From NCBI GenBank assembly GCA_039930045.1, contig JBDSQB010000002.1, positions 262,286 to 326,285 on the forward strand: a stretch of 64,000 bases of DNA, given 5' to 3'. This document shows, in pieces, positions 12-51,488 of the stretch. The first letter of the stretch is position 1, and each line of letters starts with the position of its first letter. The position numbers were made by a program, and so were the translations under genes. Under the pieces are notes generated by a model, which was not told where the DNA came from, did not search any database, and saw nothing but the letters and a program-made list of their open reading frames with translations. The stretch comes from Chthoniobacterales bacterium. Its GTDB lineage: Bacteria > Verrucomicrobiota > Verrucomicrobiia > Chthoniobacterales > DASVRZ01.

Positions 12-3000
12 ATGCCCGCAGTTAGTAAGAAACCTTCCGCACCCGTCCCCAAGGCCGCACCACTGGCCGACTCCATCCGCATCCGCAATGTTCGTCAGAA
101 CAATCTGAAGGGCATTGATCTCGACCTGCCGCTAAATCAGTTGATTGTCGTCACCGGTCCCAGCGGATCGGGCAAGTCCTCGCTCGCTTTCGACACGATC
201 TACGCCGAGGGCCAGCGACGTTACGTGGAGACGTTCTCGCCTTACACGCGGCAATTTCTCGACCGCATGGACAAGCCGCGGGTGGACGAGATTCTCGGCA
301 TCCCGCCCGCCATCGCCATCGAGCAGAAAAACGGCGTTCGCACCACGCGCTCGACCGTCGGGACGATGACGGAGATTAACGATTACCTGAAACTTCTCGT
401 GCCACGGCTGGCGCGGGCGTTTTGTCCGATTTGCGACCGGGAAATTCGACCCGAGACAGCACAGTCGATCGTCACTCAACTCCAAAAAGAGCACGCCGGT
501 GAGACGATTCTCATCACCTTTGGCGTGCCCGTTCCGCCGAACACTAAGCCGGCGGATTTCTTCAAATTTCTCACCGCCCAAGGCTATCTCCGCATCTGGC
601 GCGATGGAAAAATGCATCGCACCGACGAGGCGCCGACGCTCACCGCCCTGCACGGCGTCGTGGAAGTCGTCCAGGACCGGATAACAGTGCAACCCGACTC
701 ATTTTCCCGGCTCACCGAGGCGGCGGAAACGGCGCTCAATTTCGGCAAGGGAAAGATTACCGTCACGAATCTCAAGACGCTGGAATCGCAGCCTTTCTCC
801 AAAGGCTGGCACTGCGCGCATTGCGACGAAACGATCCGCCCGCCATCGCCGGGACTTTTTTCCTTTAACAATCCGCTCGGCGCGTGCCCGACCTGCCGTG
901 GTTTTGGCCGCACGATTGGGCTCGATCTCGACCGTGCGCTGCCCGACAAATCGCTGAGCATCGCCGAGGGCGTGGTGAAGCCGTTCCAGAGCGGACAATC
1001 CAAGGAATGCCAGTCCGATCTGATGCGCCATGCCCAGCGCAATCTGGTCGATGTTTATTGTCCGTTTGCCGAGCTTTCCCCTGCCGATCAAAAATGGGTG
1101 CTCCAAGGCGAGGGAGGCATCGATGTTAGCAACGAGGAACTCTGGAAAAACGACCAATGGTATGGCGTGAAAGGTTTCTTCGACTGGATGGAGGCGCGCA
1201 CTTACAAAATGCACATCCGCGTTTTCCTCAGCCGCTACCGCGCCTACACCGAGTGCCCGGATTGTCATGGTGGCCGCTTCCAACCCGCGACGCTGAACTA
1301 TCAATTGGTCGATCAAGCGGGGAAACGCTATACGCTTCCGCAGCTGAGCCGAACGCCGGTGAGACAACTGGCAACTTTGTTAGAAACCTTCCTGGTTCCA
1401 GCGGCGGACAAGACGGGCACGATGATTCGTGGCGAAGTCGTTTCTCGCCTGCGCTATCTCGACGAGGTCGGCCTCGGCTACCTCGATCTCGACCGCAGCA
1501 CGCGCACGCTTTCCGGCGGCGAAGTCGAGCGCGTCACGCTCACCACTTGTCTCGGAGCGTCGTTGGTTAACACCTTGTTCGTCATGGACGAGCCGACGGT
1601 AGGGCTGCATCCGCGCGATGTTAGCAAACTGATAGGAGTCATGCAGCAGTTGCGCAACAAGGGCAACACTTTGTTAGTCGTCGAACACGAGGAGGCGGTC
1701 ATCCGCTCTGCCGACTATCTGATCGACATCGGCCCAGGTCGCGGCAACGACGGAGGCGAGCTGGTCTTCGCTGGAAACGCATCGGAGTTGCATAGTAATC
1801 AGCGCTCGCTCACCGCTGCGTATTTGTATGGCCGCAAATCCATTCCAGTTCCAGTCAAACGTCGCAAAGCCAAAGCCTGGCTCACCGTCAAAGGTGCCAC
1901 CGAAAACAACCTGCGCGACATCGACGTCAAGTTTCCGCTGGGACTTTTCACCTGCGTCACTGGCGTTTCCGGCAGTGGAAAATCCAGTCTCGTACACACG
2001 GTTCTCCACGAAAATCTGCTTCGCATCAAAGGCCTGCCAACCGGAGAAGTTATTGGGCATTGCCGCAGCATATTAGGAGGCCACGCCGTTGATCAGGTCG
2101 TGATGGTCGACCAGTCGCCGCTCGCCCGCAGCCCGCGCTCCACGCCAGCCGTTTACTTGGGAGTCTTCGACGAGTTGCGCAAACAATTTGCCGACAGTTC
2201 CGCGGCGCAGGCGGCGGGATTTACCGCCAGCACGTTCTCCTTCAACAGCGGAACTGGGCGCTGCCAGCGCTGCAATGGACTCGGCTATGAAAAGGTTGAG
2301 ATGCAGTTTCTCAGCGATCTTTTCATCCGTTGCTCCGAGTGCGAAGGGAAACGCTACCAGCCGCATGTTCTAGCCATTCAACTCCACGGAAAATCGATTC
2401 ACGATGTCCTAGAACTAACTGTTAGTGAAGCCATCGCGTTTTTCACCGAACATGGAGCTAACAAAAAGATTTTGGAACCTTTCCGCACCTTGGAAAGCGT
2501 CGGCCTCGGCTACCTGAAACTCGGCCAGCCGGTCAACGTCCTGAGTGGCGGAGAAAGCCAGCGACTCAAGTTAGTCGGACATCTCGTAGAGAAGTCTAAC
2601 CTGCACCAGAAGTCGCTCCTCATTTTCGACGAACCGACCACTGGACTTCATTTCGATGATGTCGCGCTGTTGTTGAACGTCTTCCAAAAGCTAGTCGATG
2701 CAGGCAACACTCTCATTGTCATCGAGCACAATCTCGAGGTCATCAAAAGCGCCGATCACGTCATTGACCTCGGCCCCGAAGCTGGCGAGGAGGGAGGCCT
2801 GATCATCGCCGAGGGTACTCCAGAGCAGGTATCTAACATTAAGGAATCCCACACCGGACGCTACCTGCGCGGCGTGCTCCAGGGGACTCGCGTCAGGGAG
2901 GAAATCATTCCCCGTCCGGTCGGTTTCAAGGGGCAATCCTCCGGCATCACCATCCACGGCGCGCGCGAACATAACCTCAAAAACTTCACCGTTACCCTGC

Positions 3001-5531
3001 CACGCGAGAAGATGATCACGATCACCGGCCTGAGCGGATCTGGAAAATCCACGCTCGCCTTCGACATTCTTTTTGCCGAGGGCCAGCGCCGCTTTCTCGA
3101 CAGCATGTCGCCCTACGCGCGGCAATTTGTCGAGCAGTTGGAGAAGCCCGATGTCGATCACATCGAGGGGCTTCCTCCTAGCGTCGCCATCGAGCAGCGC
3201 ATCACGCGCGGCGGCGGAAAATCGACGGTTGCGACCGTCACCGAGGTCTATCATTTCCTGCGCCTAATGTTTGCCAAACTCGGCACGCAGTATTGCCCGA
3301 AATGTCAGATTCCTGTCGAGGGACAGACCATTCAGCGCATCATCGAGCAAGTGGAAAAGGTCGTCGGAAAGAAGACCTCCTATTTGCTGGCCACGGTCGT
3401 GAAAGCTAGAAAAGGCTTCCACACCGATGTGGCCGCGGCGGCAGCCAAGGACGGTTTCGAGACATTGTTAGTCGATGGGAAATTTATTCCTTCTGCTAAC
3501 TTCGAGAAGCTGGAACGTTTTAAGGAACACACCATCGACATCGTGCTGGCCGACCTGTCGCAAGTGAAGAAGGCTGATGTCAGACCTCTGGTGGAACGCG
3601 CACTGCAAATCGGCAAGCGCACCGCCAAAATCTATGTCGCCGGACAGGAGACAATTCTCAGCACGGAGATGACCTGCCCGAAATGTTCGCGCGCCTTCGA
3701 GGAACTGGACCCGCGTTTGTTTTCCTTTAACTCGCCTCACGGCTGGTGCACGACTTGCAATGGATTCGGCGAGATTTTTGAGGCCGCCATTAACCTAGAC
3801 GAAGACGCCTCCATGCTGGAGCGCGAGCTTGCCGAAGAAAAAGCCCACGAGTCAATGGAGGAAGGGGAATCGAAGCCGTGTCACGTCTGCAAAGGGGCGC
3901 GTCTGAATGAAGTGGCGCGCAATGTTAGATTGAATGATCTAACCATCGACCGGCTGACCCACGGCAGCGTGCGCGATTCGTTGGAGACCGTGCAAAAGCT
4001 AACCTTCCAGAAACAACAGCTAGTCATCTCGGAGGACATCATTCCAGAGATCACGCAGCGGCTGAAGTTCATGGAAAACGTCGGCCTGAGCTATCTGGCG
4101 CTGGATCGTTCCGCGAAGACTTTGAGCGGAGGCGAGAGCCAGCGCATCCGGCTCGCGGCGCAGTTAGGTTCCAATCTGCGCGGCGTGCTTTACGTTCTTG
4201 ATGAGCCGACCATCGGATTGCATCCGCGCGACAACGACGCGTTGTTAGACACTCTCGAAGCGCTCAAAGCCAAGGGCAACACGCTTGTGATTGTCGAGCA
4301 CGACGAGGAAACCATGCGCCGCTCCGACATCATTGTCGATCTCGGCCCCGGTGCCGGCATGAACGGCGGCGAAGTCGTCGCCCAGGGGACTTTGAGTCAA
4401 ATCAAAGCCAACAAAAATTCTCAGACCGGACGTTACCTGAAGAAGCCGATGCAGCATCCGTTGTTAGGTTCGCGCCGTTCCCTCGCCAAAGTGGACTGGC
4501 TGCAAATCATCAAGGCCGATGTTAACAATCTAAAAAACATCACGGTCAAATTCCCCATCGGTCGGCTCACAGCCATCACGGGAATTTCCGGTTCTGGTAA
4601 AAGCACCCTGATGCGCGGCGCACTGCGGCCGGCCGTGGAGGAGGCGCTCAATACCAAAGCCAAAAAAACGGGCAAGTATCCCGATCTCAAAGGTACAGAA
4701 TTTCTCGAAGCCATCTACGAGGTTGATCAGTCGCCGATCGGCAAATCCTCGCGCTCGATTCCGGCGACTTATATCAAGGTCTTCGACGAAATCCGGCTGC
4801 ATTTTGCCGCGTTGCCGATGTCGCGGATGCGAGGTTATACTAACAGTCGTTTCTCCTTCAACACCGAGGGCGGACGCTGCGAAACCTGCGCGGGTCAGGG
4901 CGTAATCAAGATGGAAATGAACTTCCTGCCGCCAAGCTATGTGCCGTGCGAGGATTGCGGCGAAACCCGCTATAACGCCCAGACTCGCGAGGTGGAATAC
5001 AATGGTAAAAACATCGGCGACGTAATGAACATGACCATCGCGCAGGCGGCGGAATTTTTCTCCGCCAGCCCAAAAATACATCGCACGCTGAACTTGTTAG
5101 TCGAGACGGGCTTGGGTTATCTCAAGCTCGGCCAGCCAAGCCCGACTCTGAGCGGCGGCGAGGCGCAACGACTCAAACTCGTCTCCGAATTGCGCCTCGG
5201 AGCGACGCGCGATTATACTAACAAAGTCCGCAAGATGAAGTCCGCCAAGAGCACGCTTTACCTACTGGAAGAACCGACGATCGGACTGCACATGGCCGAC
5301 GTGGAAATGTTGCTTGGCGTCATCCAGCGGCTCGTCGATGTGGGTCACACGGTGATTGTCATTGAACACAACTTAAACGTCATCGCTGAAGCCGATTACG
5401 TGGTGGACATCGGACCGGAAGCCGGATCTGCGGGCGGCGAGCTAGTCGCCTGTGGCACGCCAGAGGAAATCTGCACGAGCAAGACGAGCCGCATCGCGCC
5501 CTATCTCAAACGGACTCTGGCAGGCAAATAA
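12..5531 (+). CDS. Tandem-duplicated UvrA-like ABC ATPase: two complete UvrA-type halves in one 1839-aa chain, four nucleotide-binding domains
   Basis: Uninterrupted ORF with ATG at 12. Four Walker A motifs: GPSGSGKSS near nt 150, GVSGSGKSS near 1965, GLSGSGKST near 3030, GISGSGKST near 4585. Four LSGGE ABC signatures, repeated AEGQRR and CxxC zinc-module motifs. Each half ends with an HTGRYL/QTGRYL-type UvrA C-terminus. Confidence 0.9.
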   Translation: MPAVSKKPSAPVPKAAPLADSIRIRNVRQNNLKGIDLDLPLNQLIVVTGPSGSGKSSLAFDTIYAEGQRRYVETFSPYTRQFLDRMDKPRVDEILGIPPAIAIEQKNGVRTTRSTVGTMTEINDYLKLLVPRLARAFCPICDREIRPETAQSIVTQLQKEHAGETILITFGVPVPPNTKPADFFKFLTAQGYLRIWRDGKMHRTDEAPTLTALHGVVEVVQDRITVQPDSFSRLTEAAETALNFGKGKITVTNLKTLESQPFSKGWHCAHCDETIRPPSPGLFSFNNPLGACPTCRGFGRTIGLDLDRALPDKSLSIAEGVVKPFQSGQSKECQSDLMRHAQRNLVDVYCPFAELSPADQKWVLQGEGGIDVSNEELWKNDQWYGVKGFFDWMEARTYKMHIRVFLSRYRAYTECPDCHGGRFQPATLNYQLVDQAGKRYTLPQLSRTPVRQLATLLETFLVPAADKTGTMIRGEVVSRLRYLDEVGLGYLDLDRSTRTLSGGEVERVTLTTCLGASLVNTLFVMDEPTVGLHPRDVSKLIGVMQQLRNKGNTLLVVEHEEAVIRSADYLIDIGPGRGNDGGELVFAGNASELHSNQRSLTAAYLYGRKSIPVPVKRRKAKAWLTVKGATENNLRDIDVKFPLGLFTCVTGVSGSGKSSLVHTVLHENLLRIKGLPTGEVIGHCRSILGGHAVDQVVMVDQSPLARSPRSTPAVYLGVFDELRKQFADSSAAQAAGFTASTFSFNSGTGRCQRCNGLGYEKVEMQFLSDLFIRCSECEGKRYQPHVLAIQLHGKSIHDVLELTVSEAIAFFTEHGANKKILEPFRTLESVGLGYLKLGQPVNVLSGGESQRLKLVGHLVEKSNLHQKSLLIFDEPTTGLHFDDVALLLNVFQKLVDAGNTLIVIEHNLEVIKSADHVIDLGPEAGEEGGLIIAEGTPEQVSNIKESHTGRYLRGVLQGTRVREEIIPRPVGFKGQSSGITIHGAREHNLKNFTVTLPREKMITITGLSGSGKSTLAFDILFAEGQRRFLDSMSPYARQFVEQLEKPDVDHIEGLPPSVAIEQRITRGGGKSTVATVTEVYHFLRLMFAKLGTQYCPKCQIPVEGQTIQRIIEQVEKVVGKKTSYLLATVVKARKGFHTDVAAAAAKDGFETLLVDGKFIPSANFEKLERFKEHTIDIVLADLSQVKKADVRPLVERALQIGKRTAKIYVAGQETILSTEMTCPKCSRAFEELDPRLFSFNSPHGWCTTCNGFGEIFEAAINLDEDASMLERELAEEKAHESMEEGESKPCHVCKGARLNEVARNVRLNDLTIDRLTHGSVRDSLETVQKLTFQKQQLVISEDIIPEITQRLKFMENVGLSYLALDRSAKTLSGGESQRIRLAAQLGSNLRGVLYVLDEPTIGLHPRDNDALLDTLEALKAKGNTLVIVEHDEETMRRSDIIVDLGPGAGMNGGEVVAQGTLSQIKANKNSQTGRYLKKPMQHPLLGSRRSLAKVDWLQIIKADVNNLKNITVKFPIGRLTAITGISGSGKSTLMRGALRPAVEEALNTKAKKTGKYPDLKGTEFLEAIYEVDQSPIGKSSRSIPATYIKVFDEIRLHFAALPMSRMRGYTNSRFSFNTEGGRCETCAGQGVIKMEMNFLPPSYVPCEDCGETRYNAQTREVEYNGKNIGDVMNMTIAQAAEFFSASPKIHRTLNLLVETGLGYLKLGQPSPTLSGGEAQRLKLVSELRLGATRDYTNKVRKMKSAKSTLYLLEEPTIGLHMADVEMLLGVIQRLVDVGHTVIVIEHNLNVIAEADYVVDIGPEAGSAGGELVACGTPEEICTSKTSRIAPYLKRTLAGK

Positions 5532-5557: not shown

Positions 5558-5587
5558 TTGTCAACGCAGGGCGGCTTGGGGTATTTT
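5558..5587 (+). promoter_or_regulatory. Candidate sigma70-type promoter: TTGTCA, 18-nt spacer, TATTTT
   Basis: Hexamers read directly in the 76-nt gap between the uvrA-like stop and the kinase start. No experimental or comparative support. Confidence 0.3.
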
Positions 5588-5607: not shown

Positions 5608-7242
5608 GTGTCCTTCCCGGCTTTTCATCCCGAAAAAAATGCAGGCAGTTCCGTGCAACAAGCGGCTCTGCTAAAAATCCTTCTCGAGAACAGCCCAGAC
5701 TGTATCTATTTCAAAGATCTGGAGCGTCGCTTCATTGCCGTCAGCCGTGGCTTGGTGCAAAGACTGGGCCAGCAAAGCGCCAGCGACCTGCTTGGCAAGA
5801 CCGACTCTGATTTTTTTGGTCAAGAACACGCCCTGGCCACGGCACTGGACGAGCAGGAAATCGTCGAAACGGGCCATCGCATTGTCGGCAAACTGGAGCG
5901 TGAGGACCTTCCCGACGGGACGGTCCGATGGGTGGTCTCCACAAAGCTGCCGATGCGTGATGAAAGCGGCAGGATCATCGGGACATTTGGCATTTCCCGC
6001 GATTTCACTGCCGAAAAGGAATGGGAGGATCGGCTCAATTCTGAGCGGTCGCTGCTACGGAGCGTCATCGAACACATTCCCGATCCGATCTATGTGAAGG
6101 ATCTCGCCGGCGTGTATGTCCTCGACAACGGATCGCACCGGTTGTTTTTGGGGCGTCATCAAGAAGAGGAAATTGTAGGGAAAACTTCCCACGATTTTTT
6201 TCCCAAGGAGCAGGCATTGAAATTTGAAGGTGATGACCAGCGAACGCTCGAAAGCGGTATTCCGCTGATCAATCGCGAGGAAATCGTCATCCGTTCCGAT
6301 GGAAGTCGCACCTGGTTTTTGACCACCAAAGTTCCGGTGAAGGGCACTCAGAAAAGCCCTGAGCTTCTGGTTTGCATCGGCCGCAATGTCACACAGCAAA
6401 AGCTAGCCGAGGAACGCCTTCTCCAGACCAACGCGGAACTCAGCTCGACCGTAGAAAAACTCAAAGAGGCCCATCAACAACTGCGCGACGTGCAGATGCA
6501 ACTGGTGGAAGCGGAGAAATTAAAATCCGTCGGACGTTTGGCGGCAGGCGTGGCCCATGAGGTTAAAAATCCGCTCGCTGTCCTTCATTTGGGAGTGGAA
6601 TTACTACGGCAGACCGTTCCCGCGACCGACGAAGAAAGCGGGGCCGTGCTGGATGAAATGACGAACGCGATTGCCCGCGCAGAGACGGTGGTCCGTGGGT
6701 TGTTGGATTTTTCCGCGCCACGCAAACTCCAGCAGGAGGCAGCGGATTTTAACGAGGTCGTGCGCCATTCCCTGCAATTTGTGAGAGGCGAGCTGCGAAC
6801 GCATCACGTCAAAGTCGCGCTGGAGCTTTCCACAGATCTGCCGTTGATCGAGATGGATCGGCAGAAAATGGAGCAAGTCCTCATCAATCTGTTAACCAAT
6901 GCCGCCCACGCCATGGCGCTTAAGGGTGGCACGCTGACGATTCGCACCCGGCGCGAACAACTCACCGGGGTCGGCGGGAATGTGGGACACGCCCTCAGCG
7001 AAAACTTCCGCATCGGCGAGTGGCTGTTAATTACTGAGATCGAAGACACGGGAACGGGGATTCCAGCGGATAAGCTGGAGCACATTTTTCAACCCTTTTT
7101 CACCACCAAAGCCACTGGCAGCGGCACCGGCCTCGGCCTGAGCGTCTCTAAAACCATCATCGCCCTTCACGGGGGCATAATCTCCGTTAAAAACGTCCCC
7201 GGCAGCGGCGCTTGTTTCAGTATTTTTCTTCCCACCCCATAA
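5608..7242 (+). CDS. PAS-PAS sensor histidine kinase
   Basis: Two PAS-like blocks (DCIYFKDL.., DPIYVKDL..). H-box AAGVAHEVKNPLAV. HATPase N/G boxes (LINLLTNAAHAM, DTGTGIP, GSGTGLGLS). GTG start, so the start position is uncertain. Confidence 0.85.
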   Translation: MSFPAFHPEKNAGSSVQQAALLKILLENSPDCIYFKDLERRFIAVSRGLVQRLGQQSASDLLGKTDSDFFGQEHALATALDEQEIVETGHRIVGKLEREDLPDGTVRWVVSTKLPMRDESGRIIGTFGISRDFTAEKEWEDRLNSERSLLRSVIEHIPDPIYVKDLAGVYVLDNGSHRLFLGRHQEEEIVGKTSHDFFPKEQALKFEGDDQRTLESGIPLINREEIVIRSDGSRTWFLTTKVPVKGTQKSPELLVCIGRNVTQQKLAEERLLQTNAELSSTVEKLKEAHQQLRDVQMQLVEAEKLKSVGRLAAGVAHEVKNPLAVLHLGVELLRQTVPATDEESGAVLDEMTNAIARAETVVRGLLDFSAPRKLQQEAADFNEVVRHSLQFVRGELRTHHVKVALELSTDLPLIEMDRQKMEQVLINLLTNAAHAMALKGGTLTIRTRREQLTGVGGNVGHALSENFRIGEWLLITEIEDTGTGIPADKLEHIFQPFFTTKATGSGTGLGLSVSKTIIALHGGIISVKNVPGSGACFSIFLPTP

Positions 7243-16239: not shown

Positions 16240-16620
16240 TCACTCGACTCGTCCGCGCATTTTCTTCGTGTCGCCGCGGCGTTTCTTCTGCTGGAGGATG
16301 CGCTCCTTCAGTCCGCGCGGCTTCGGGCGGTTGGCGCGTTTCACTTTTTCCCGCTCCGATTTCAATGCAGCCCGGCTGGCGGCCCGCTGTTCTTTGATTG
16401 TGGCAATGAGGCGTTCGCGAGCGAGCTGCCGATTCGAGAGTTGCGAACGATGATCCTGCACGCTCACTTGCAGTCCACTGGGACGATGGACCAGCGTGAC
16501 GGACGTGCTGACTTTGTTGACGTTCTGCCCGCCCGGCCCCGAGGAACGTTTGAAGGTTTCCTCAACGTCCTCGATGCGCAGCCCGAGCTTGCGGAGGGCG
16601 GCGGCAAATTCGGTGTCCAT
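16240..16620 (-). CDS. arfB: Alternative ribosome-rescue factor / peptidyl-tRNA hydrolase ArfB
   Basis: 126 aa. GGQ motif SSGPGGQNVNKV followed by a basic C-terminal tail. Confidence 0.85.
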   Translation of the reverse strand: MDTEFAAALRKLGLRIEDVEETFKRSSGPGGQNVNKVSTSVTLVHRPSGLQVSVQDHRSQLSNRQLARERLIATIKEQRAASRAALKSEREKVKRANRPKPRGLKERILQQKKRRGDTKKMRGRVE

Positions 16621-16696
16621 CGGAGTTAGGTTGAAGTCTGCTCAACGTTAGAGCGAAGTTTTTCTTTGGCGCGTCGGCATTTTTCCGAATTGGCGG

Positions 16697-16725
16697 TTGA
16701 CGCTCCCCTTTCCGATTTCTAGTGT
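16697..16725 (+). promoter_or_regulatory. Candidate sigma70-type promoter for sucCD: TTGACG, 17-nt spacer, TAGTGT
   Basis: Hexamers read directly, 32 nt upstream of the sucC ATG in the divergent arfB/sucC gap. Confidence 0.35.
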
Positions 16726-16756
16726 CAAAATTTCCTCCGCAGACCCGCCTCTTTTC

Positions 16757-17953
16757 ATGAACATCCACGAGTACCAAGCCCGCGAACTTTTTGCGAAATT
16801 TAATGTCGCCACACAACCCGGCAGCGTCGCCTCGACTCCAGCGGAAGCCGAACAGATCGCCGCAAAACTGGGTGGCAAGATCGTCGTCAAATCGCAGATT
16901 CACGCTGGAGGACGCGGCAAGGGCGTTTTCAAAAACGGCTTCAAGGGCGGCGTCCATTTGTGTGCAACTCCCGTGGAAGCCGGGGAGCTCGCCGGAAAAA
17001 TGCTCGGCCAAGTGCTGGTGACGCATCAGACCGGACCCGAAGGCAAGGAAGTGAGCAAAGTCTTTGTCGGCGCCGCGGTAAACATCCAGCGCGAGTTGTA
17101 TTTCGCCATTTTGCAGGACCGCGCGACGAGCGGTTACACGATCATCGCGAGCACCGAAGGCGGCGTGAATATCGAGGACGTGGCCGAGCACACGCCGGAG
17201 AAAATTCACCACGAACCCGTCCACCCCACACTTGGGTTGCAGTCGTATCAAAGTCGCAAGCTGGCACAAATCCTGGGTCTCGACGGCAAGCTGATGAATC
17301 AGGCGGTGAAGCTTTTTGGCAATCTCTACAAGCTCTTCATCGAGTGCGATTGCTCGATGGTGGAAGTCAACCCGCTGGTCGTCACGGACAGGGGCGAATT
17401 GCTCGCGCTCGATGCGAAATTTGGCTTCGACGACAACGCTCTCTATCGCCATCCCGACATCCTCGCGATGCGCGACAAGACCGAGGAAGACCCGCGCGAA
17501 GTCGCCGCATCGGAGTTCCAATTGAATTACATCGGTCTCGACGGAAACATCGCCTGTCTGGTCAACGGAGCCGGGCTCGCCATGGCGACGATGGACATTA
17601 TTCAATACGCCGGCGGCAACCCCGCGAACTTCCTCGACGTCGGCGGCGGCGCGACCAAGGAGCAAGTCGCAGCAGCCTTCCGAATCATCCTGGCCGACCC
17701 CAAAGTCGAAGGCATTCTCGTGAATATTTTTGGCGGCATCATGGATTGCGACATCATCGCCCACGGGATTTTGGCCGCGGCTGCGGAGACGGGTTTGAGC
17801 ATTCCCCTCGTCGTCCGGCTCGAAGGCAACAACGTCGCCGCTGGCAAAGCCACGCTGGCTTCCAGCGATCTGAAAGTTATCGGAGGCGACAACATTCTCG
17901 ACGCCGCCCAGAAGATCGTCGCAGCCGTCAGCGACGCTAAAAAAGCCGCCTAA
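16757..17953 (+). CDS. sucC: Succinyl-CoA synthetase beta subunit
   Basis: [13 protein letters not shown]-terminus, ATP-grasp region, [10 protein letters not shown] motif. Confidence 0.93.
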
Positions 17954-17961
17954 TTTCTCCC

Positions 17962-18858
17962 ATGTCCATTCTTGTCACGCCCACTACTAAGATTCTCATC
18001 CAAGGCATCACTGGCAGCTTTGGCGCGCGCCATGCCCAGCTTTCGCTCGACTACGGCAGCCAGGTTGTCGCCGGGGTTACGCCTGGAAAAGGCGGCCAGT
18101 TGTTTGCCAATGTCGTGCCAATTTTCGACACGGTCTCGCAAGCGGTGAGAGAAACCGGAGCCACTGTTTCGGCGATTTTTGTTCCGCCACCGTTCGCTGC
18201 CGACGCCATTTTGGAAGGCGTCGATGCCGGTCTCGATCTCGTGATTTGCATCACGGAAGGCATTCCGGTGAATGACATGGTGAAGGTGAAACACGCCATG
18301 AAAGGCAGCAAAACCCGTCTGATCGGCCCGAATTGCCCCGGCATCGTCACGCCTGGCACGGGGGAGAATTCCCATGGCGGCTGCCGCATCGGCATCGCAC
18401 CCGGTTACATTCATAAAAAGGGCAACGTCGGTGTCGTTTCGCGCTCGGGCACGCTCACTTACGAGGCTGTTTTCCAACTCACCACGCGCGGTTATGGCCA
18501 ATCGACTTGCGTTGGTATCGGCGGCGATCCGGTCAATGGCACGAGCCATTTGGACATTCTGAAAATGTTCAACGACGACCCCGAGACCGAGGCGATCATC
18601 ATGATCGGCGAAATCGGTGGCACCGCTGAGGAAGAAGCCGCTGAATGGGCGGGTCAGTATTGCAAGAAGCCGATCGCGGGCTTCATTGCCGGAGCCACCG
18701 CGCCTCCCGGACGCCGGATGGGTCACGCCGGGGCCATCGTCAGCGGAGGCAAAGGCACCGCCGCCGCCAAAATTGCCGCTCTCGAAGCCGCTGGCATCGC
18801 CGTTTCCCCGACGCCTGCCGGAATGGCCGACACGCTGCTGAAACACTGGAAGCGCTAA
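17962..18858 (+). CDS. sucD: Succinyl-CoA synthetase alpha subunit
   Basis: [16 protein letters not shown], and GHAGAI with the phosphohistidine. Starts 8 nt after sucC. Confidence 0.93.
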
Positions 18859-18895
18859 CATTTACATTTCAACCAAACTCAACTCTTAATAACCC

Positions 18896-20683: not shown

Positions 20684-22672
20684 ATGAGCGCAAAAGCCAT
20701 GACATCTGACAAAAACATAACATTACAGCCGGCAGGCCCGACGGATGCTACCTATCGCAGCATCGTGGAACATGCAATCGAAGGAATTTTCCAGACCACT
20801 CCCGATGGCCATTATTTGCTCGCAAACCCCGCTCTGGCATCGATTTACGGATATTCTTCGGTCGCCGAATTGTGCAGCGGAGTGCGGGAGATTGCCCGCC
20901 AGCTTTACGTCGAACCCACCCGGCGCAATGAGTTTCTCCAATTGATGAATGAGCAGGACGCGGTCTGGGGCTTCGAGTCTCCGATTCATCGCAAAGATGG
21001 GAGTGTGATTTGGATTTCCGAGAATGTGCGCGTGATTCGCGACGAAAATGGCGATGTTTCCTACTACGAGGGCACGGTCGAGGACATCTCGAATCGCAAG
21101 CACGCCGAGGAGCAGTTGCGCCGCGCCAAGGAAGCCGCCGAGGAAGCCAGCCGGTCGAAAAGCCAGTTTCTCGCAAACATGAGCCACGAGCTGCGCACAC
21201 CGCTCAACGCCATTATCGGCTACAGCGAATTGCTCCACGAGGAAGCCGAGGACATGGGCGAGAAAAGTTTCTGCGACGATCTGAAAAAAATCGAGAAAGC
21301 CGGCAAGCACCTGCTCGATCTCATTAATGGCGTGCTCGACATTGCCAAGATCGAGGCTGGCAAAATGGAAGTCCACGTGGAGGAATTCGACATCGCCGAA
21401 ATGCTCCAAGACGTCGGCAGCACGGTCACCCCGATCATTGAGAAAAAAGGCAACCGTCTCGTCATCGAAACCGCGCCCGGCTTGGGAAAAATGCAGACCG
21501 ACCTGACCAAGGTCCGCCAGTCGCTTTTCAATCTGCTCGGCAATGCGGGCAAATTCACCGAAAACGGCCTCGTCACTCTCTCGGCCCGCCGGCAGTCAGA
21601 CTCAGACAAAGACTGGATCATTCTCCAGGTGCGCGACACCGGCATCGGCATGACCAATGAACAAGCGTCGCGAATTTTTGAGGCATTCACCCAGGCTGAT
21701 TCGTCCACGACCCGGAAATTTGGCGGCACCGGGCTGGGGCTCACCATTACCCGCGAGTTCTGCCGCTTAATCGGCGGCGAGGCGACCGTCACGAGCACAC
21801 TGAAACTCGGCTCGACTTTCATGATCAAGCTGCCCGCGATTTTTTCCGCCGAGGATCAGCAGCCGGCCTCCATCACGTCATTCCAGATTGAGCCGGAAAT
21901 GGAAAACTCCGAGCAGCCGCTCGTGCTGCTGATCGACGACGATCTCACCATTCACGATCTGGTGAAACGCTTCCTGCACAAGGAAGGCTTCCGCACCATC
22001 TGCACGCAAAACGGCGCGGACGGACTCGACCTGGCCCGGCGCCTGCAACCGTCGGTCATTGTTCTCGACGTGATGATGCCGACGATGGACGGATGGTCCG
22101 TTCTTTCGCGGCTGAAAAGCGACCCGGTTTTATCTAACATCCCGGTCGTCATGCTCACCATGGTGGACGACAAGGCGATGGGCTACACTCTGGGCGTGGA
22201 CGATTACATGCTCAAGCCCATCGAGCGCGTGGATTTCGTGGGTGTGCTGCGCAAGTTTTGCGATCAGAACAACCCCGGAACGGTGTTAGTCGTCGAGGAT
22301 GATGACACCTCGCGCGAGCTGGTGCGCGACATGTTAGAAAAAGACCACTACACCGTCATCGAAGCTCGCAACGGCCTGGAAGGTCTCGAGCGACTCACGG
22401 GCGTGGTGCCGACCATGATCCTGCTCGATCTCATGATGCCCGAGATGGATGGCTTTGAATTTGCCGCTGCCGTCCGCAAAATCCCCAAGCTAACCAACGT
22501 CCCCATCGTGGTGATGACGGCAAAGGACATCACCTCGCAAGACCGCACCCGCCTCGAGGGCCATGTCGCGCGCGTCATGCAAAAAGGCCTCTATGGCCGC
22601 GACGATTTGCTTGCCGAAATCCGCTCACATATTTTGCGGGCGACTTCCAATCCAATGGTCGCCGCCGCCTGA
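20684..22672 (+). CDS. Hybrid sensor histidine kinase: PAS, HisKA, HATPase, REC, REC
   Basis: H-box MSHELRTPLNAIIGYSELL. HATPase motifs (NLLGNAGKFT, DTGIGM, GGTGLGL). Two receiver domains (LLIDDD..VLDVMMPTMDG and LVVEDDD..LLDLMMPEMDG). Confidence 0.88.
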   Translation: MSAKAMTSDKNITLQPAGPTDATYRSIVEHAIEGIFQTTPDGHYLLANPALASIYGYSSVAELCSGVREIARQLYVEPTRRNEFLQLMNEQDAVWGFESPIHRKDGSVIWISENVRVIRDENGDVSYYEGTVEDISNRKHAEEQLRRAKEAAEEASRSKSQFLANMSHELRTPLNAIIGYSELLHEEAEDMGEKSFCDDLKKIEKAGKHLLDLINGVLDIAKIEAGKMEVHVEEFDIAEMLQDVGSTVTPIIEKKGNRLVIETAPGLGKMQTDLTKVRQSLFNLLGNAGKFTENGLVTLSARRQSDSDKDWIILQVRDTGIGMTNEQASRIFEAFTQADSSTTRKFGGTGLGLTITREFCRLIGGEATVTSTLKLGSTFMIKLPAIFSAEDQQPASITSFQIEPEMENSEQPLVLLIDDDLTIHDLVKRFLHKEGFRTICTQNGADGLDLARRLQPSVIVLDVMMPTMDGWSVLSRLKSDPVLSNIPVVMLTMVDDKAMGYTLGVDDYMLKPIERVDFVGVLRKFCDQNNPGTVLVVEDDDTSRELVRDMLEKDHYTVIEARNGLEGLERLTGVVPTMILLDLMMPEMDGFEFAAAVRKIPKLTNVPIVVMTAKDITSQDRTRLEGHVARVMQKGLYGRDDLLAEIRSHILRATSNPMVAAA

Positions 22673-23069: not shown

Positions 23070-25496
23070 ATGACCGCCCAACTCGATCTGCCGACACGAC
23101 CCGATTTGCAACATGAGTTGCACGATCTGCGCACACCGCTGAATCAGATCATCGGTTTCAGTGAAATGCTTCAGGAGATCGCGCAGGAGGAAGGCCGCCA
23201 CGATCTGCTCGATGGCCTCGCCACCGTCTGCTCGGCAGGCATCGAACTCACTTCGCTCCTCGCCGACACCCGCCTCATTTCGCTAACTAACAACGACGAC
23301 CAGGAATACTGGCCGCTCGTCGATGCGGTGCGCTCTCCGATCAGCCGCGTGTTAGGTTTCGCCGACCTCATTCTCGCCGAACCGCCCGAGGCGCATCTTT
23401 CCAGCTATAACGAGGACATCGAAAAAATCCGCACTGCCGCCGCCATGTTCTTCGTCAAGGCACGGGCGAGTCGCATTGTTATCCGGATCGAGGCCGCGCG
23501 CGACTGGACCGCAGGCACGCCACGCCAGACCACTAGCGCCAGCCCGGAAAGCGTGGGCCGCGTTCTCATCGTTGATGACGAAAATCTCAACCGTGAGATT
23601 CTCTGCCGCCGCTTGTTGCGTGAGGGCTACAGTTCGCTAGGAGTCGCCAGCGGACATGCCGCTCTGGAGGCTTTGCGGAAGGAGAAGTTCGACATCATTT
23701 TGTTAGACATCATGATGCCCGGAATCGGCGGCATCGAGGTCTTGCAAACTCTCAAGCAGGACGAGACCCTGCGCCATTTGCCCGTCCTCATGCTTTCCGC
23801 TCTGTCCGACGTGGATCGCGTCGCGCGCTGCGTCGAGTTAGGCGCGGATGACTATCTGCCCAAGCCTGTGAATGCGATCTTACTCCGTGCGCGCCTCGGT
23901 GCCTGCATGGAAAAGAAACGCCTGCGCGATCACGAGCAAGCCAGCTTGCGCGAATTGGACTCCGAAAAAGAACTTCTCAGCGTCACGCTGCAATCGCTGG
24001 TCGACGCCGTCGTCACCACCGATGCGGAAGGCCGCATCGTTCTCTTTAACAATGGCGCGACAGTCCTCACAGGCCGCTCCGCCAACACTGCGCGCGGGCA
24101 GTTTTTCGCCGACGTCTTCCCGATTTTTGACCGAACTAACAATCAGCCCGCGGCAGACATTGCACGCGAGGCATTGCAACTTCGCGCCGTCGTGGACACA
24201 CCGTCCGGCCACACAATGATCACGCCGCTCGGGGAGCGGATCATGGCCGCCCACGCCGCTCCGATCCAGGGCCACGATGGCGGCATCAAAGGCACGGTCG
24301 TCGTCATTCGCGACGTCACGGAAAAAGAAAAAATCGCCGAGGAAGTCCTGCGCTCCAGCAAGCTGGAATCCATCGGCGTACTAGCTGGCGGACTCGCCCA
24401 CGACTTTAATAACATGCTCACCGCCGTCATCGGCAATCTCTCCCTGCTGCGTCACGGCGTCGATCCCTCGCCCGACATCATGCATCGCCTCGACGAAGCC
24501 GAGGAAGGCGCGCTGCGAGCCCGCGATCTCGCGCAATATCTCCTAACCTTCGCCGAGGGCGGCGCGCCGCTGAAGAAAGTAGTCGAGCCTGCCGCGCTGC
24601 TTCGCGAGACCACTGAATTCGTCGTTCGCGGCTCGCGGGTCGATTGCGATTTTGAGCTGCCCGACGACCTCTGGAAAGTGGAGGCCGACCCCGGCCAGTT
24701 CACCCAAGCCGTCTCGAATGTCGTGATGAATGCCGCGCAAGCCATGCCCGAGGGCGGCACGATTTTCCTCTCCGCGGAGAACATCATGATCGAGGAAGAC
24801 AGCGATCTAACCTTGCCTGGCGGGGCCTACGTTTCCATCTCCATTTCCGACATGGGAGTGGGCATTCCGGCAGAACATCTGCCGCGCATTTACGATCCAT
24901 TTTTCACCACGAGAAACCAGGCGCGCGGACTCGGTCTGGCCGCGACCTATTCCATTATTCATCGCCACGGCGGCTTGATCGATGTCGAGTCCACGCCCGG
25001 TTACGGCACAAAAGTTCACCTGCTCCTGCCTGCGGTGGAAGTGGCTTCGGCCCCTGAACCATCGGAACACATTTCCACTCCTGGGCAGCCTGCCGAACCT
25101 CTCTCCGGCCAGCGTCTGCAACGCGTGCTCGTGATGGATGACGAGGCTTCCATTCGCGAAGTTTGCGCCGACTTGCTCAAGCTCCTCGACTACGAAGTCG
25201 TCACCACCAGCGACGGGGCCGAGGCGCTCGCCGTCTATCATCAGGCGCAACAAAGCGGTACTCCATTCGACCTCATCATCACCGACCTCACCGTCCCCGG
25301 CGGCATGGGAGGGGCCGAGGCTATGCGTCGTCTGCGCGAGAGTGGCTCGAAGGTACGCGCCATCGTTTCCAGCGGCTACTCGAATGGACCCGTCATGAGC
25401 CATCCCGCCGAATATGGGTTCCAGGGCGTGCTGCCCAAACCGTATCGTCTGCACGACCTCGAAGCCGTCCTGCAAAAGGTCGCCGCCGCTGGCTGA
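23070..25496 (+). CDS. Multidomain hybrid kinase: N-terminal ATPase-less H-box module, REC, PAS, HisKA, HATPase, REC
   Basis: N-terminal HELHDLRTPLNQIIGFSEML with no following ATPase. REC (VLIVDDENLN..LLDIMMPGIGG). PAS region. Second H-box GLAHDFNNMLTAV. HATPase (SDMGVGIP..GLGLA). C-terminal REC (VLVMDDE..ITDLTVPGGMGG). ATG lies 1 nt after the upstream stop. Confidence 0.85.
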   Translation: MTAQLDLPTRPDLQHELHDLRTPLNQIIGFSEMLQEIAQEEGRHDLLDGLATVCSAGIELTSLLADTRLISLTNNDDQEYWPLVDAVRSPISRVLGFADLILAEPPEAHLSSYNEDIEKIRTAAAMFFVKARASRIVIRIEAARDWTAGTPRQTTSASPESVGRVLIVDDENLNREILCRRLLREGYSSLGVASGHAALEALRKEKFDIILLDIMMPGIGGIEVLQTLKQDETLRHLPVLMLSALSDVDRVARCVELGADDYLPKPVNAILLRARLGACMEKKRLRDHEQASLRELDSEKELLSVTLQSLVDAVVTTDAEGRIVLFNNGATVLTGRSANTARGQFFADVFPIFDRTNNQPAADIAREALQLRAVVDTPSGHTMITPLGERIMAAHAAPIQGHDGGIKGTVVVIRDVTEKEKIAEEVLRSSKLESIGVLAGGLAHDFNNMLTAVIGNLSLLRHGVDPSPDIMHRLDEAEEGALRARDLAQYLLTFAEGGAPLKKVVEPAALLRETTEFVVRGSRVDCDFELPDDLWKVEADPGQFTQAVSNVVMNAAQAMPEGGTIFLSAENIMIEEDSDLTLPGGAYVSISISDMGVGIPAEHLPRIYDPFFTTRNQARGLGLAATYSIIHRHGGLIDVESTPGYGTKVHLLLPAVEVASAPEPSEHISTPGQPAEPLSGQRLQRVLVMDDEASIREVCADLLKLLDYEVVTTSDGAEALAVYHQAQQSGTPFDLIITDLTVPGGMGGAEAMRRLRESGSKVRAIVSSGYSNGPVMSHPAEYGFQGVLPKPYRLHDLEAVLQKVAAAG

Positions 25497-34599: not shown

Positions 34600-35143
34600 G
34601 CGCACTCTGGAGCCGGGCGAGATAGGCTTTTTTCGACACTTCCAGAGCGCCAAACTTCGCCAGATGCGGCGTGATCCATTGCGTGTCGAGCAGCATGAAA
34701 CTCCGCTCGCGGAGGTGATCGACCAAGGCGACGAGAGCCACTTTCGAGGCATCGGTCTCGGTGTGAAACATCGATTCGCCGAAAAATGCCCCGCTCAGAC
34801 AGACGCCATAAAGTCCTCCGGCGAGGCCATTTTCGCTCCAGGCTTCGACGGAATGCGCGTGGCCCAACCGGTGCAAGGCGACGTAACTCGCGATGATTTC
34901 CTCACTGATCCACGTGTCCTCGCGCTCGGCGCAGGCTCGCATCACTGTCTCGAAATCGTGATCGAAGCGAATGGTGAACGGATGCTTTTTCAGCGTCCGG
35001 GCCAGCCCATGCGGGACGTGAAATGTGTCCAGCGGAATGATTCCGCGCGGGTCGGGCGAAAACCAGCCGATCTCCCCGTTTTCCATGCTCATCGGGAAAA
35101 CGCCCTGCGAGTAGGCTTGCAGGAGGAGATCGGAGGAGATCAC
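34577..35143 (-). CDS. aat: Leucyl/phenylalanyl-tRNA--protein transferase
   Basis: LLQAYSQGVFPM, GGLYGV, FFGESMFH motifs. 188 aa. Confidence 0.9.
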   Translation of the reverse strand: MISSDLLLQAYSQGVFPMSMENGEIGWFSPDPRGIIPLDTFHVPHGLARTLKKHPFTIRFDHDFETVMRACAEREDTWISEEIIASYVALHRLGHAHSVEAWSENGLAGGLYGVCLSGAFFGESMFHTETDASKVALVALVDHLRERSFMLLDTQWITPHLAKFGALEVSKKAYLARLQSALKLDCKF

Positions 35144-35146
35144 GGT

Positions 35147-36787
35147 CTAACCCAGATCGACCTGCGGCACTTCGGGCGGTTTCGGGTGGATGCCCTCAGC
35201 CGCCAAGATATCGAAAACATTTTCCGCCACGATCCGGTAATGCTCGCGGAAAACCTCGTCGTCCGGCTCACGGCTGAGTTTGAGGTAATCGGCGTGATCT
35301 TTCCCCAGCTTGAGCGAGAGAAAATTAATCAACTGCTCGCGTTCGCCGAGCGGTGTTCCCTCGGGCGAAACCATGCTTTGGGCGCGACGTTCACCGTCCT
35401 GGGCGAGGTCTTCCAGCCGGGTGCGGAGTTCGGAGTTGATGCTCTCGAGTTGGGCCACATAGCGGCGCAAAGATTCGTTGTCCTCGGGGGGCGTCGTGTC
35501 GGGCCAGACGCCATCGCCTCCACCAGAACCGTAACGCCCACCGCGACCACGACCGCGTTTGTCGCGTCCGCCACCGCCGCCGCGTTCTTCGAGCTGGCGC
35601 AACTTGGTGCGCGCCTGGGAAAGTTCCTGCGATTGCTGGCGAATGAAATTATCGAGCTGACGCAGCATGGCGACTGGATCGGCCTGAGTGCGCTCTCCTC
35701 CGCGACCTCCGCGACTGTCACGTCCACTGGATTGAGCCGGTTGATTCGACGGGCGATTCGGCTGGCCGGGGCTGACGTAGGGCGGATGCTTCGGGCGGCT
35801 TTCCCGGCGCTCGCCGCTGGCCTCATCTTCGTCATCGTCTTTCTCATCATCATCCTCCTCGTCGTAGTCATCATCCTCCTCGTCGTCGTCATCAGAATCA
35901 GACTCGGCTGCGGGCTCGGCGGTTTCGTCGGCGGGAGTTTCAGTGTTTTCTGGCGCGTCGGCAGGATTGCGCCGCGAGGTTTTCTCCGCAAACGCCTCAG
36001 CGATTGCCGTCGGCAAATTCTCCGGCACGGTCTTAAAATCGCGCATCAAGCGGCCCGGCCATTTGCGAATCGCCTGGGCGATGGATTGCTGCGAGCGCTC
36101 GCTGAGAATGGTGAGTTTGTCGATTTTGATCAGCCAAAGGAGAAACGCGCTTTGCGTAAATGGCGGGCAGCCGCCGGTGAAAATCGTGCTGATGGCGGCG
36201 TTGAGCAGGTGCGCGAGATCGGCGTCTTTGAGGCCGTCGAGTTGCAGGCGCAGGAGCCAGGGTTTCCCCTTGCCGACGAGGACGTTGAAGAACGACTGGC
36301 GGTCGCGCGTGGTGAGGATACCGTCCTCTCCGAGCATTTCGGCAGCGATGGCGCAGGCCCATTTGGCGGCTTGGGCCTCATCGACCTTCACGAGACCGCG
36401 CGTGATGCTGAGGCGAATGCGGCGGCCGATTTCGCCCTCGAAGGCGGGACCTTTCATCCCGGAAACGAAGAGGCGGCGGCCGTAAGGCTTCATCTCGGGC
36501 CAGGCGGCGTTCAGACCGTTGACGCTGATCGGCCAAGGCAGTTTGCCAATGGCGTCGAGCGCCTCGTTGATCTCGGGTTTGCCACCGAGCAAGGCGCTGC
36601 GGAGGAGGTCGGCGGTCTGCGTTTCGTGCGCCGGGCTCATGCGTCCGGCCTGCGCGGTGGCGACCATCTGCGGGAGCGTGGAATTTTCCGTGGGAGTTGC
36701 AGGCGAATCGGGCACAATGGGACTTGCGTCCGACTCTGTGGGCTCCATTTGGGTTTCGTCGTCGGGGGAAATGTCTTCTGAATTCAT
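35147..36787 (-). CDS. Hypothetical protein with poly-acidic tract, RGG/Gly-Arg tracts and coiled-coil segments
   Basis: 546-aa ORF ending 3 nt before the aat start. Contains DSDDDDEEDDDYDEEDDDEKDDDEDE, then SRGGRGG and ERGGGGGRDKRGRGRGGRYGSGGG. No family recognised. Confidence 0.7.
   Translation of the reverse strand: MNSEDISPDDETQMEPTESDASPIVPDSPATPTENSTLPQMVATAQAGRMSPAHETQTADLLRSALLGGKPEINEALDAIGKLPWPISVNGLNAAWPEMKPYGRRLFVSGMKGPAFEGEIGRRIRLSITRGLVKVDEAQAAKWACAIAAEMLGEDGILTTRDRQSFFNVLVGKGKPWLLRLQLDGLKDADLAHLLNAAISTIFTGGCPPFTQSAFLLWLIKIDKLTILSERSQQSIAQAIRKWPGRLMRDFKTVPENLPTAIAEAFAEKTSRRNPADAPENTETPADETAEPAAESDSDDDDEEDDDYDEEDDDEKDDDEDEASGERRESRPKHPPYVSPGQPNRPSNQPAQSSGRDSRGGRGGERTQADPVAMLRQLDNFIRQQSQELSQARTKLRQLEERGGGGGRDKRGRGRGGRYGSGGGDGVWPDTTPPEDNESLRRYVAQLESINSELRTRLEDLAQDGERRAQSMVSPEGTPLGEREQLINFLSLKLGKDHADYLKLSREPDDEVFREHYRIVAENVFDILAAEGIHPKPPEVPQVDLG
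35847..35886. repeat. Exact 19-nt duplication at 21-nt offset inside the acidic tract
   Basis: TCATCATCCTCCTCGTCGT at 35847-35865 and again at 35868-35886 on the plus strand. Confidence 0.8.

Positions 36788-48611: not shown

Positions 48612-51488
<2,877 letters not shown>

Follow-up and report, generated by a model that had tools for sequence, protein, structure and literature searches.

UvrA, the damage sensor of bacterial nucleotide excision repair (NER), is in its canonical form a head-to-head homodimer, in which four nucleotide-binding domains (NBDs) build a saddle-shaped core and DNA lies in a central groove (PMC5128194). Damage recognition needs the insertion domains together with the C-terminal zinc finger (PMC5128194), and the insertion domain is described as indispensable for recognising damage and coordinating DNA (PMC5128194; PMC11985968). 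According to cryo-electron microscopy (cryo-EM) of Mycobacterium tuberculosis UvrA, the insertion domains clamp, unwind and melt DNA in unequal "recognition" and "support" roles, UvrB bound to one protomer frees the insertion domain of that protomer, and the distal ATP sites serve scanning and damage discrimination while the proximal sites serve UvrB recruitment (PMC11985968). An open question in bacterial NER is how the symmetric UvrA2 dimer (or UvrA2-UvrB2) turns asymmetric (PMC11985968); the complex must choose the damaged strand, employ one insertion domain for recognition and leave a single UvrB on the DNA. We describe here a uvrA gene in a 64-kb stretch of a Chthoniobacterales genome (contig JBDSQB010000002.1; this whole stretch is called the window below), which encodes two different UvrA units in one chain of 1839 amino acids (aa).

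In the open-access literature we found UvrA classes I, II, IIa and IIb only, and no description of a fused or heterodimeric UvrA. Class II, represented by Deinococcus radiodurans UvrA2 (2vf7), DrrC and Ecm16 (7sh1), shares the ATP-binding cassette (ABC) core and is a paralogue minus an accessory domain, perhaps with a changed function, being without the UvrB-binding domain and zinc module 1 and having the insertion domain kept (PMC9328131; PMC3167621). Double-length proteins are known from databases: the double UvrA of Chlamydiota (NCBIfam NF001885/PRK00635, 1809 positions) is also a single chain and is annotated as excinuclease ABC subunit A. Outside the UvrA family, the MutS homodimer and the eukaryotic MSH2-MSH6 pair, as well as heterodimeric ABC proteins with one degenerate ATP site, offer an analogy only, in that diverged paralogues replace an asymmetrically working homodimer, their roles become fixed and one nucleotide site is modified. 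All these systems belong to different protein families, and no homology beyond the ABC ATPase fold is implied.

The gene under study is one open reading frame (ORF) on the forward strand, with an ATG start 11 nt from the window edge and no internal stop according to the ORF listing and the translation. Its two UvrA units are called half 1 (A1-type) and half 2 (A2-type), and its parts are as follows.

12..5531, forward strand: whole gene, stop codon included, encoding the fused UvrA (A1-tether-A2); single ORF, translation and identical NCBI protein.
12..2867, forward strand: half 1 (A1-type), aa 1-952; one-piece alignment to Bacillus stearothermophilus UvrA 14-962.
456..794, forward strand: UvrB-binding domain of half 1, aa 149-261; PF17760 UvrA_inter, 55 bits.
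915..1232, forward strand: insertion domain of half 1, aa ~302-407, the only one of the protein; PF17755.
2868..2945, forward strand: tether between the halves, aa ~953-978, RGVLQGTRVREEIIPRPVGFKGQSSG; matches neither UvrA unit.
2946..5528, forward strand: half 2 (A2-type), aa 979-1839; TIGR00630, 1035 bits, and AlphaFold2 model.
3324..3653, forward strand: UvrB-binding domain of half 2, aa ~1105-1214; PF17760, 60 bits.
3771..3878, forward strand: acidic 36-aa segment replacing the insertion domain, aa 1254-1289, EIFEAAINLDEDASMLERELAEEKAHESMEEGESKP; alignment to E. coli UvrA.
5193..5234, forward strand: insert of ~13 aa after the signature motif of the fourth NBD, aa ~1728-1741; alignment to E. 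coli UvrA.
5256..5291, forward strand: Walker B of the fourth (distal, half 2) ATP site, LYLLEEPTIGLH; Glu (aa 1753) in place of the canonical Asp.

As a gene call this is routine: the identical protein, from a 644-kb contig, is already deposited at NCBI under the name [quoted passage not shown], and curated database models exist for double-length UvrAs, which are widespread. An earlier note on this DNA had claimed that the ORF runs through the junction of the two halves, and this is confirmed, because the translation ...ESHTGRYLRGVLQGTRVREEIIPRPVGFKGQSSGITIHGAREHNLKN... is read without break over nt ~2850-2990 and the undivided form is kept in more than 120 homologues and in closed genomes. 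The best 120 homologues listed have 1808-1977 aa, 62-91% identity and a query coverage of 99-100%, and the named ones among them are Chthoniobacter, Chthoniobacterales or Verrucomicrobiota. In the closed 5.6-Mb genome CP170506.1 the orthologue is a single gene for 1826 aa, whose neighbourhood is different and of housekeeping type.

That the source is a metagenome-assembled genome speaks for an assembly or sequencing artefact, in which a lost stop or a frameshift has joined adjacent uvrA genes, and in one relative (L048) an A1-type and an A2-type gene do abut with overlapping stop and start beside a G6 run, so that split and fused forms are one indel apart. Against this, the same uninterrupted ORF is found in more than 120 independent clusters and about 40 GTDB species genomes, in the closed genomes CP170506.1, NZ_CP151837.1 and CP011265.1, and in the cultured Terrimicrobium sacchariphilum and Verrucomicrobium sp. 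GAS474 (WP_093288394.1); moreover, a check of the junction (nt ~2850-2990) found no long homopolymer. The probability of an artefact is practically nil and this explanation is effectively refuted. The double-length uvrA gene is genuine, already annotated and common, and the protein is almost certainly a fused A1-A2 UvrA of a known, widespread kind.

The earlier note had proposed that each half be searched separately. With the protein cut at aa 962/963, each half alone matches the hidden Markov models (HMMs) of the UvrA equivalogs end to end: on TIGR00630 (cut-off 729.8 bits) the whole protein scores 2012, half 1 982 and half 2 1035 bits, all above the cut-off, and on NF001503 (cut-off 1147) the whole scores 2066 bits and the halves 1009 and 1062, slightly below it. 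Every solved UvrA is also matched by each half, B. stearothermophilus UvrA with E ~1e-237 (half 1) and ~1e-249 (half 2). In alignment, identity to E. coli UvrA is 43% for half 1 and 47% for half 2. Between the two halves it is only 34-43%, so that they resemble one another no more than each resembles E. coli UvrA. The note was right that the halves are diverged, and the asymmetry is real.

One polypeptide with two UvrA units, as the same note had also read it, is borne out by the motifs. Each of the four NBDs has its Walker A, Q-loop, signature, Walker B and H-loop motifs, and about 120 of 120 homologues keep them. Both halves also have the ligand pairs of zinc modules 1, 2 and 3, which align with C120/H123-C253/C256, C277/C280-C406/C409 and C740/C743-C763/C766 of E. 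coli UvrA. The UvrB-binding domain PF17760 (cut-off 23.3) is found twice, at aa 149-253 with 55 bits and at aa 1105-1208 with 60 bits, and the two copies are equally conserved among the 120 homologues.

The accessory domains had been singled out in the note as something to look for in each half; the UvrB-binding domain is indeed in both, and the insertion domain (PF17755 UvrA_DNA-bind, aa 305-375) is in half 1 only. The description of the halves as "two complete" units therefore has to be corrected, because half 2 has lost the insertion domain of ~110 aa. Half 1 contains NBD-I, the UvrB-binding domain, the insertion domain, NBD-II and the three zinc modules, and the alignment of half 2 to B. 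stearothermophilus UvrA falls into two pieces, with the insertion domain passed over. The acidic segment that stands in its place sits between the two Cys pairs of zinc module 2, and the spacing of these pairs is 112-117 aa in half 1 and 34-39 aa in half 2, each in 120 of 120 homologues. By domain content both halves are class I units, half 1 a full one and half 2 one without the insertion domain.

A further difference lies in the distal ATP site of half 2, whose Walker B is LLEEP against the canonical hhhDEP. The EEP is present in this Walker B in 120 of 120 close homologues and in all fused and free A2-type genes of Verrucomicrobiota, and it occurs at the distal site in only 56 of the 405 UvrA units surveyed (representatives and GTDB loci). 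Structure prediction covered half 2 alone, using AlphaFold2 with 36 family members as the alignment, and gave a confident model with a mean pLDDT of 82.8 and a pTM of 0.74. In this model the replacement segment is a loop with one short helix, the ~13-aa insert prolongs an existing helix (half-2 residues 753-778), and the fit to the class I structures 3zqj, 2r6f and 3uwx (TM 0.77-0.80) is better than that to class II UvrA2 (0.68) or Ecm16 (0.64). The ratio of nonsynonymous to synonymous substitution rates (dN/dS), calculated against the closest relative with DNA available (L003), is ~0.82 in the tether and only ~0.075 and ~0.052 in half 1 and half 2, respectively, values that are rough because dS is saturated. 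Judged by these ratios, both halves are under purifying selection.

Set beside the class I homodimers of E. coli, B. stearothermophilus (2r6f/3uwx), M. tuberculosis (3zqj/9ga2-5) and Thermotoga maritima (3pih), the window protein has the same domain order in each half, the same ATPase motifs, three zinc modules and a UvrB-binding domain per unit, and likewise obtains four ATP sites from two units. The class I homodimer, however, is made of two identical chains of ~940 aa with an insertion domain in every unit, whereas the window protein is one chain of 1839 aa made of two non-identical paralogous units, with one insertion domain per "dimer" and Glu for Asp in one distal Walker B. Membership in class II was considered and rejected, because the UvrB-binding domain and zinc module 1 are found in each half; half 2 is rather the opposite of class II, having kept the UvrB-binding domain and lost the insertion domain. 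The chlamydial equivalog NF001885 is matched colinearly across the junction (aa 217-1038 against model positions 198-1000), and membership was again rejected, with 1234.7 bits against a cut-off of 3054. The double UvrA of Candidatus Clavichlamydia salmonicola (WP_194844426.1, 1775 aa) itself reaches only 1249 bits, and the model is therefore specific to a narrower chlamydial group. In the Clavichlamydia protein the insertion-domain-less unit comes first, the reverse of the window protein, and the double UvrA of a Simkaniaceae locus (L070) has insertion domains in both units; these proteins have the normal DEP Walker B, unlike the window protein.

Relatives that encode the two units as separate genes are most informative on the origin of the fusion. 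All fusions of Verrucomicrobiota share signatures of half 1 (FV[LM]DEP and [LF][IL][FL]DEP, insertion domain present) and of half 2 (YVLDEP and ..[LI]EEP, insertion domain absent), and some genomes of this phylum have single-length genes with exactly one half's signature set. In one of them (L053) an A1-type gene for 1070 aa is followed, after a spacer of 902 nt, by an A2-type gene for 964 aa; in two others (L083, on a 766-kb contig, and L084, 275 kb) the A2-type gene lies 2.7-3.5 kb downstream of the A1-type gene on the same strand, with a few unrelated genes between. In these unfused pairs, of Pedosphaera/Limisphaerales type, the insertion domain is in A1 only and the EEP in A2 only, and order and strand are those of the halves; the two genes are 0.9-3.5 kb apart, and any heterodimer would be non-covalent. 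Free A1 proteins make up about 30 clusters, with the labels Pedosphaera, Limisphaerales or Verrucomicrobiae. They match half 1 best (~960 bits), ahead of E. coli UvrA (~620-640) and half 2 (~560), and free A2 proteins match half 2 best (900-1020 bits), ahead of E. coli UvrA (~750-850) and half 1 (~600). Because relatives encode A1 and A2 separately in the same order, the window gene is, by these signatures, a fusion of two old and distinct UvrA paralogues.

A neighbour-joining tree of 207 complete UvrA units, calculated on the conserved core without the two accessory domains, points the same way: N-halves are nearest to N-halves and C-halves to C-halves, the own partner is nearest for only 2 of about 160, and there are two mirrored clades, one with 54 N-halves and one with 58 C-halves, in which the window protein is found. 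The backbone branches are too short to tell one fusion origin from several, and the single-length UvrAs in the tree were chosen by likeness to the query, so that their placement is meaningless. Mean identity between the half categories is flat (0.39-0.49) and not informative. The gene is a clean case of a core repair protein that was duplicated, diverged and was then fused, and the fused UvrA could serve as a lineage marker within the PVC (Planctomycetota-Verrucomicrobiota-Chlamydiota) group. At L048 (5190-5240), where the A1-type and A2-type genes abut, the stop/start overlap (TTGA) lies just after a G6A4 run; this arrangement could reflect genuine translational coupling of two genes, or a single wrong base in the assembly of a fused gene.

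The spread of double-length UvrAs was examined by an exhaustive HMMER search with half 2 over 1.84 billion cluster representatives (50% identity), which gave 61,967 matches. Double proteins match twice and therefore rank at the top; the best 150 of these matches are almost all 1550-2343 aa long, and double-length UvrAs amount to well over 100 clusters at 50% identity. The earlier note had mentioned duplicated UvrAs as a minor class, a view that does not hold, because they make up most of the top 150 representatives and come from many phyla. We assigned architectures to the best 150 by hmmalign to the E. coli UvrA HMM, writing U for the UvrB-binding domain and I for the insertion domain. The layout of the window protein, [U+I+]-[U+I-], is found in 39 clusters; [U+I+]-[U+I+] in 35; the doubled class II form [U-I+]-[U-I+] in about 19-22; the reverse order [U+I-]-[U+I+] in 5; and class I-class II fusions in 5, the remainder being fragments. 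All complete Verrucomicrobiota fusions in GTDB have the layout of the window protein except one (L040), with a longer second insertion-domain region, and a fused UvrA of this form is typical of the phylum. Double-length loci of this phylum in GTDB are found in Chthoniobacter flavus, Akkermansia, Roseibacillus and Opitutales, and also in the closed genomes of Luteolibacter sp. AS25 (NZ_CP151837.1) and IMCC26134 (CP011265.1). Other GTDB groups with such loci are Planctomycetota, Chlamydiota (Simkaniaceae), Poribacteria, Latescibacterota, Fibrobacterota, Senegalimassilia and, among Bacteroidota, Alistipes onderdonkii and Sodaliphilus.

Several variants were seen in this survey. The double UvrAs of Planctomycetota have insertion domains in both units, are much longer and carry an extra ~400-500 aa: two called proteins (P0124, P0128) have 2334-2343 aa, and stop-to-stop ORFs of 2297-2491 aa, for which upstream read-through is possible, were found at L059-L063, L067, L069, L072, L074, L076 and L077. 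The insertion-domain-less unit comes first in P0206 (the Clavichlamydia protein), P0137, P0148, P0170 and P0208, from Chlamydiota and some Planctomycetota metagenome-assembled genomes (MAGs), and this reversed order suggests that fusion took place independently or that the units were rearranged. A class I unit is fused to a class II unit, the latter without UvrB-binding domain, in P0182, P0201 (Candidatus Ozemobacteraceae), P0217, P0234 and P0237, and doubled class II proteins of ~1590-1680 aa are P0239, P0245 and about 20 others; the tandem principle therefore extends to several types of UvrA. In a few double UvrAs among the 405 surveyed units, one Walker B, in just one of the two units, is clearly degenerate (for example NEP, DRP, SEP or KEP), which recalls the ABC heterodimers with one non-catalytic site. 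Unexpected taxon labels are attached to a free A2 gene with the EEP Walker B (L050, Candidatus Methylomirabilota) and to the double-length P0362 and P0368 (Gammaproteobacteria) and P0189 (a Candidatus Kinetoplastibacterium crithidii MAG); they could reflect contamination, mis-binning or horizontal transfer.

The tether that joins the halves is flexible and unconserved in sequence. A slightly wider stretch around it has 30 aa here and 29-75 aa across the 120 homologues. A peptide motif LR(A/V)AE(E/S)P nevertheless recurs in many Chthoniobacterales (L008, L011, L024, L030, L041 and others) and may be a docking or regulatory element. A fossil or active internal ribosome-binding site in the tether (AGGGAGGAA, encoding "REE") was considered and rejected, since the codons of this motif vary synonymously, as expected of a peptide feature and not of a ribosome-binding site, and no in-frame start follows.

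When genes that are separate elsewhere are found fused, this is classically a sign that their products associate physically or functionally (the "Rosetta stone" principle). On this ground, and from the domain content given above, we consider it probable that the fused A1-A2 UvrA, with its halves paired intramolecularly, is the NER damage sensor of this cell, where it would act together with UvrB and UvrC. The earlier note's proposal that one chain supplies the equivalent of a whole dimer, as an intramolecular pseudo-dimer, is plausible and is the reading that we prefer. An A1-A2 heterodimer is the most economical form, because the units are fused here and separate in relatives, the order A1-then-A2 is conserved, and A2 has no insertion domain, for which reason it would be a poor stand-alone sensor. 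The halves would pack head to head like the subunits of an ordinary UvrA2 dimer, giving a covalent A1-A2 heterodimer with DNA held in the groove between them. The four ATP sites would power scanning and testing of the duplex, the single insertion domain would clamp and probe the lesion, and the two UvrB-binding domains would recruit UvrB. The asymmetry that is transient in the homodimer would thus be fixed in sequence; any functional effect of having one insertion domain and of the Asp-to-Glu change is our inference.

Several points weigh against this reading. A1 has the full class I architecture, and its homodimerisation is possible in principle. Nine GTDB genomes have a free A2 gene and no A1 within 2 kb, so that a tight A1-A2 linkage is not universal. 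None of uvrB, uvrC, uvrD, mfd or a second uvrA was found among the 30 large ORFs of the 64-kb window, and our literature search found no experiment or structure for any double-length UvrA.

The first of these points leads to a rival pairing, in which two chains associate as A1-A1' and A2-A2', or domain-swapped as A1-A2', giving an assembly equal to two linked UvrA dimers that might, for example, load UvrB on two sides or bridge DNA. The tether, at about 19-65 aa, is very variable in length and therefore imposes no obvious single geometry, which is in keeping with such an assembly. An A2-A2' pair without any insertion domain, however, would be a poor sensor, the A1-then-A2 order is kept in both fused and unfused forms, and as a general principle a covalent tether strongly favours intramolecular pairing through local concentration; we hold pairing between chains to be rather unlikely. 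Another alternative makes half 1 the sole NER sensor, with half 2 merely carried along in another role, such as a class II-like one in tolerance or drug displacement, or that of a regulatory ATPase. Its lost insertion domain, unusual EEP Walker B and extra insert would suit such a role, as would the free A2-type genes without adjacent A1 in some genomes, and class II UvrAs do act outside NER (PMC9328131). Half 2 has nevertheless kept the UvrB-binding domain and zinc module 1 that class II is without, it scores above half 1 on the UvrA equivalog models and is closer to E. coli UvrA (47% against 43%), its model is closer to class I than to class II structures, it is under stronger purifying selection than half 1, and there is no resistance or biosynthetic context. 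This alternative is accordingly quite improbable, and the earlier note's suggestion that one half serves partner or drug binding finds no backing either, given a UvrB-binding domain in both halves, the better class I fit and the housekeeping context.

Returning to the intramolecular A1-A2 heterodimer, a wider possibility can be put forward tentatively, as possible rather than probable: in Verrucomicrobiota an obligate A1-A2 heterodimer, with a single insertion domain and one modified distal ATP site, may have replaced the universal UvrA2 homodimer. Most lineages would have it as a fusion, and Pedosphaera/Limisphaerales as the products of two linked genes. If true, this would be a hard-wired form of the division of labour between recognition protomer and support protomer that has been proposed from cryo-EM of the homodimer. 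No description of an obligate heterodimeric UvrA in Verrucomicrobiota was found in the literature, and the interpretation as A1/A2 paralogues and the asymmetry of single insertion domain and EEP may be undescribed. Because both "subunits" belong to the same chain, mutations could be placed singly in any one of the ATP sites, in either UvrB-binding domain or in the only insertion domain, which is impossible in a homodimer. The tethered heterodimer, together with its unfused A1/A2 relatives, would be a natural tool for testing site-specific asymmetry of UvrA directly.

The window has a GC content of 55-62% and is ordinary chromosomal DNA, with a neighbourhood of housekeeping genes and no biosynthetic or resistance cluster. 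Downstream of uvrA follow genes for a PAS histidine kinase, lipoyl synthase, a glycosyltransferase, ClpB, HisF and an ABC exporter, and further downstream those for citrate synthase, hybrid kinases, MacB-type exporters, DnaX, aconitase and glycogen phosphorylase. The aconitase gene, an ORF of 958 aa at 48612-51488 on the reverse strand, had been considered as a candidate for a second canonical uvrA and was rejected. An ORF of 705 aa (34664-36781, forward strand) has no Pfam match at E <= 1e-5, and two reverse-strand ORFs without matches (16562-17764 and 17950-18861) overlap opposite-strand ORFs of similar size. Within 25 kb there are three PAS-domain histidine or hybrid kinases on the forward strand, at 5608-7242, 20684-22672 and 23070-25496; the first lies directly downstream of uvrA, and a promoter-like site at 5558-5587 suggests that it is transcribed separately.

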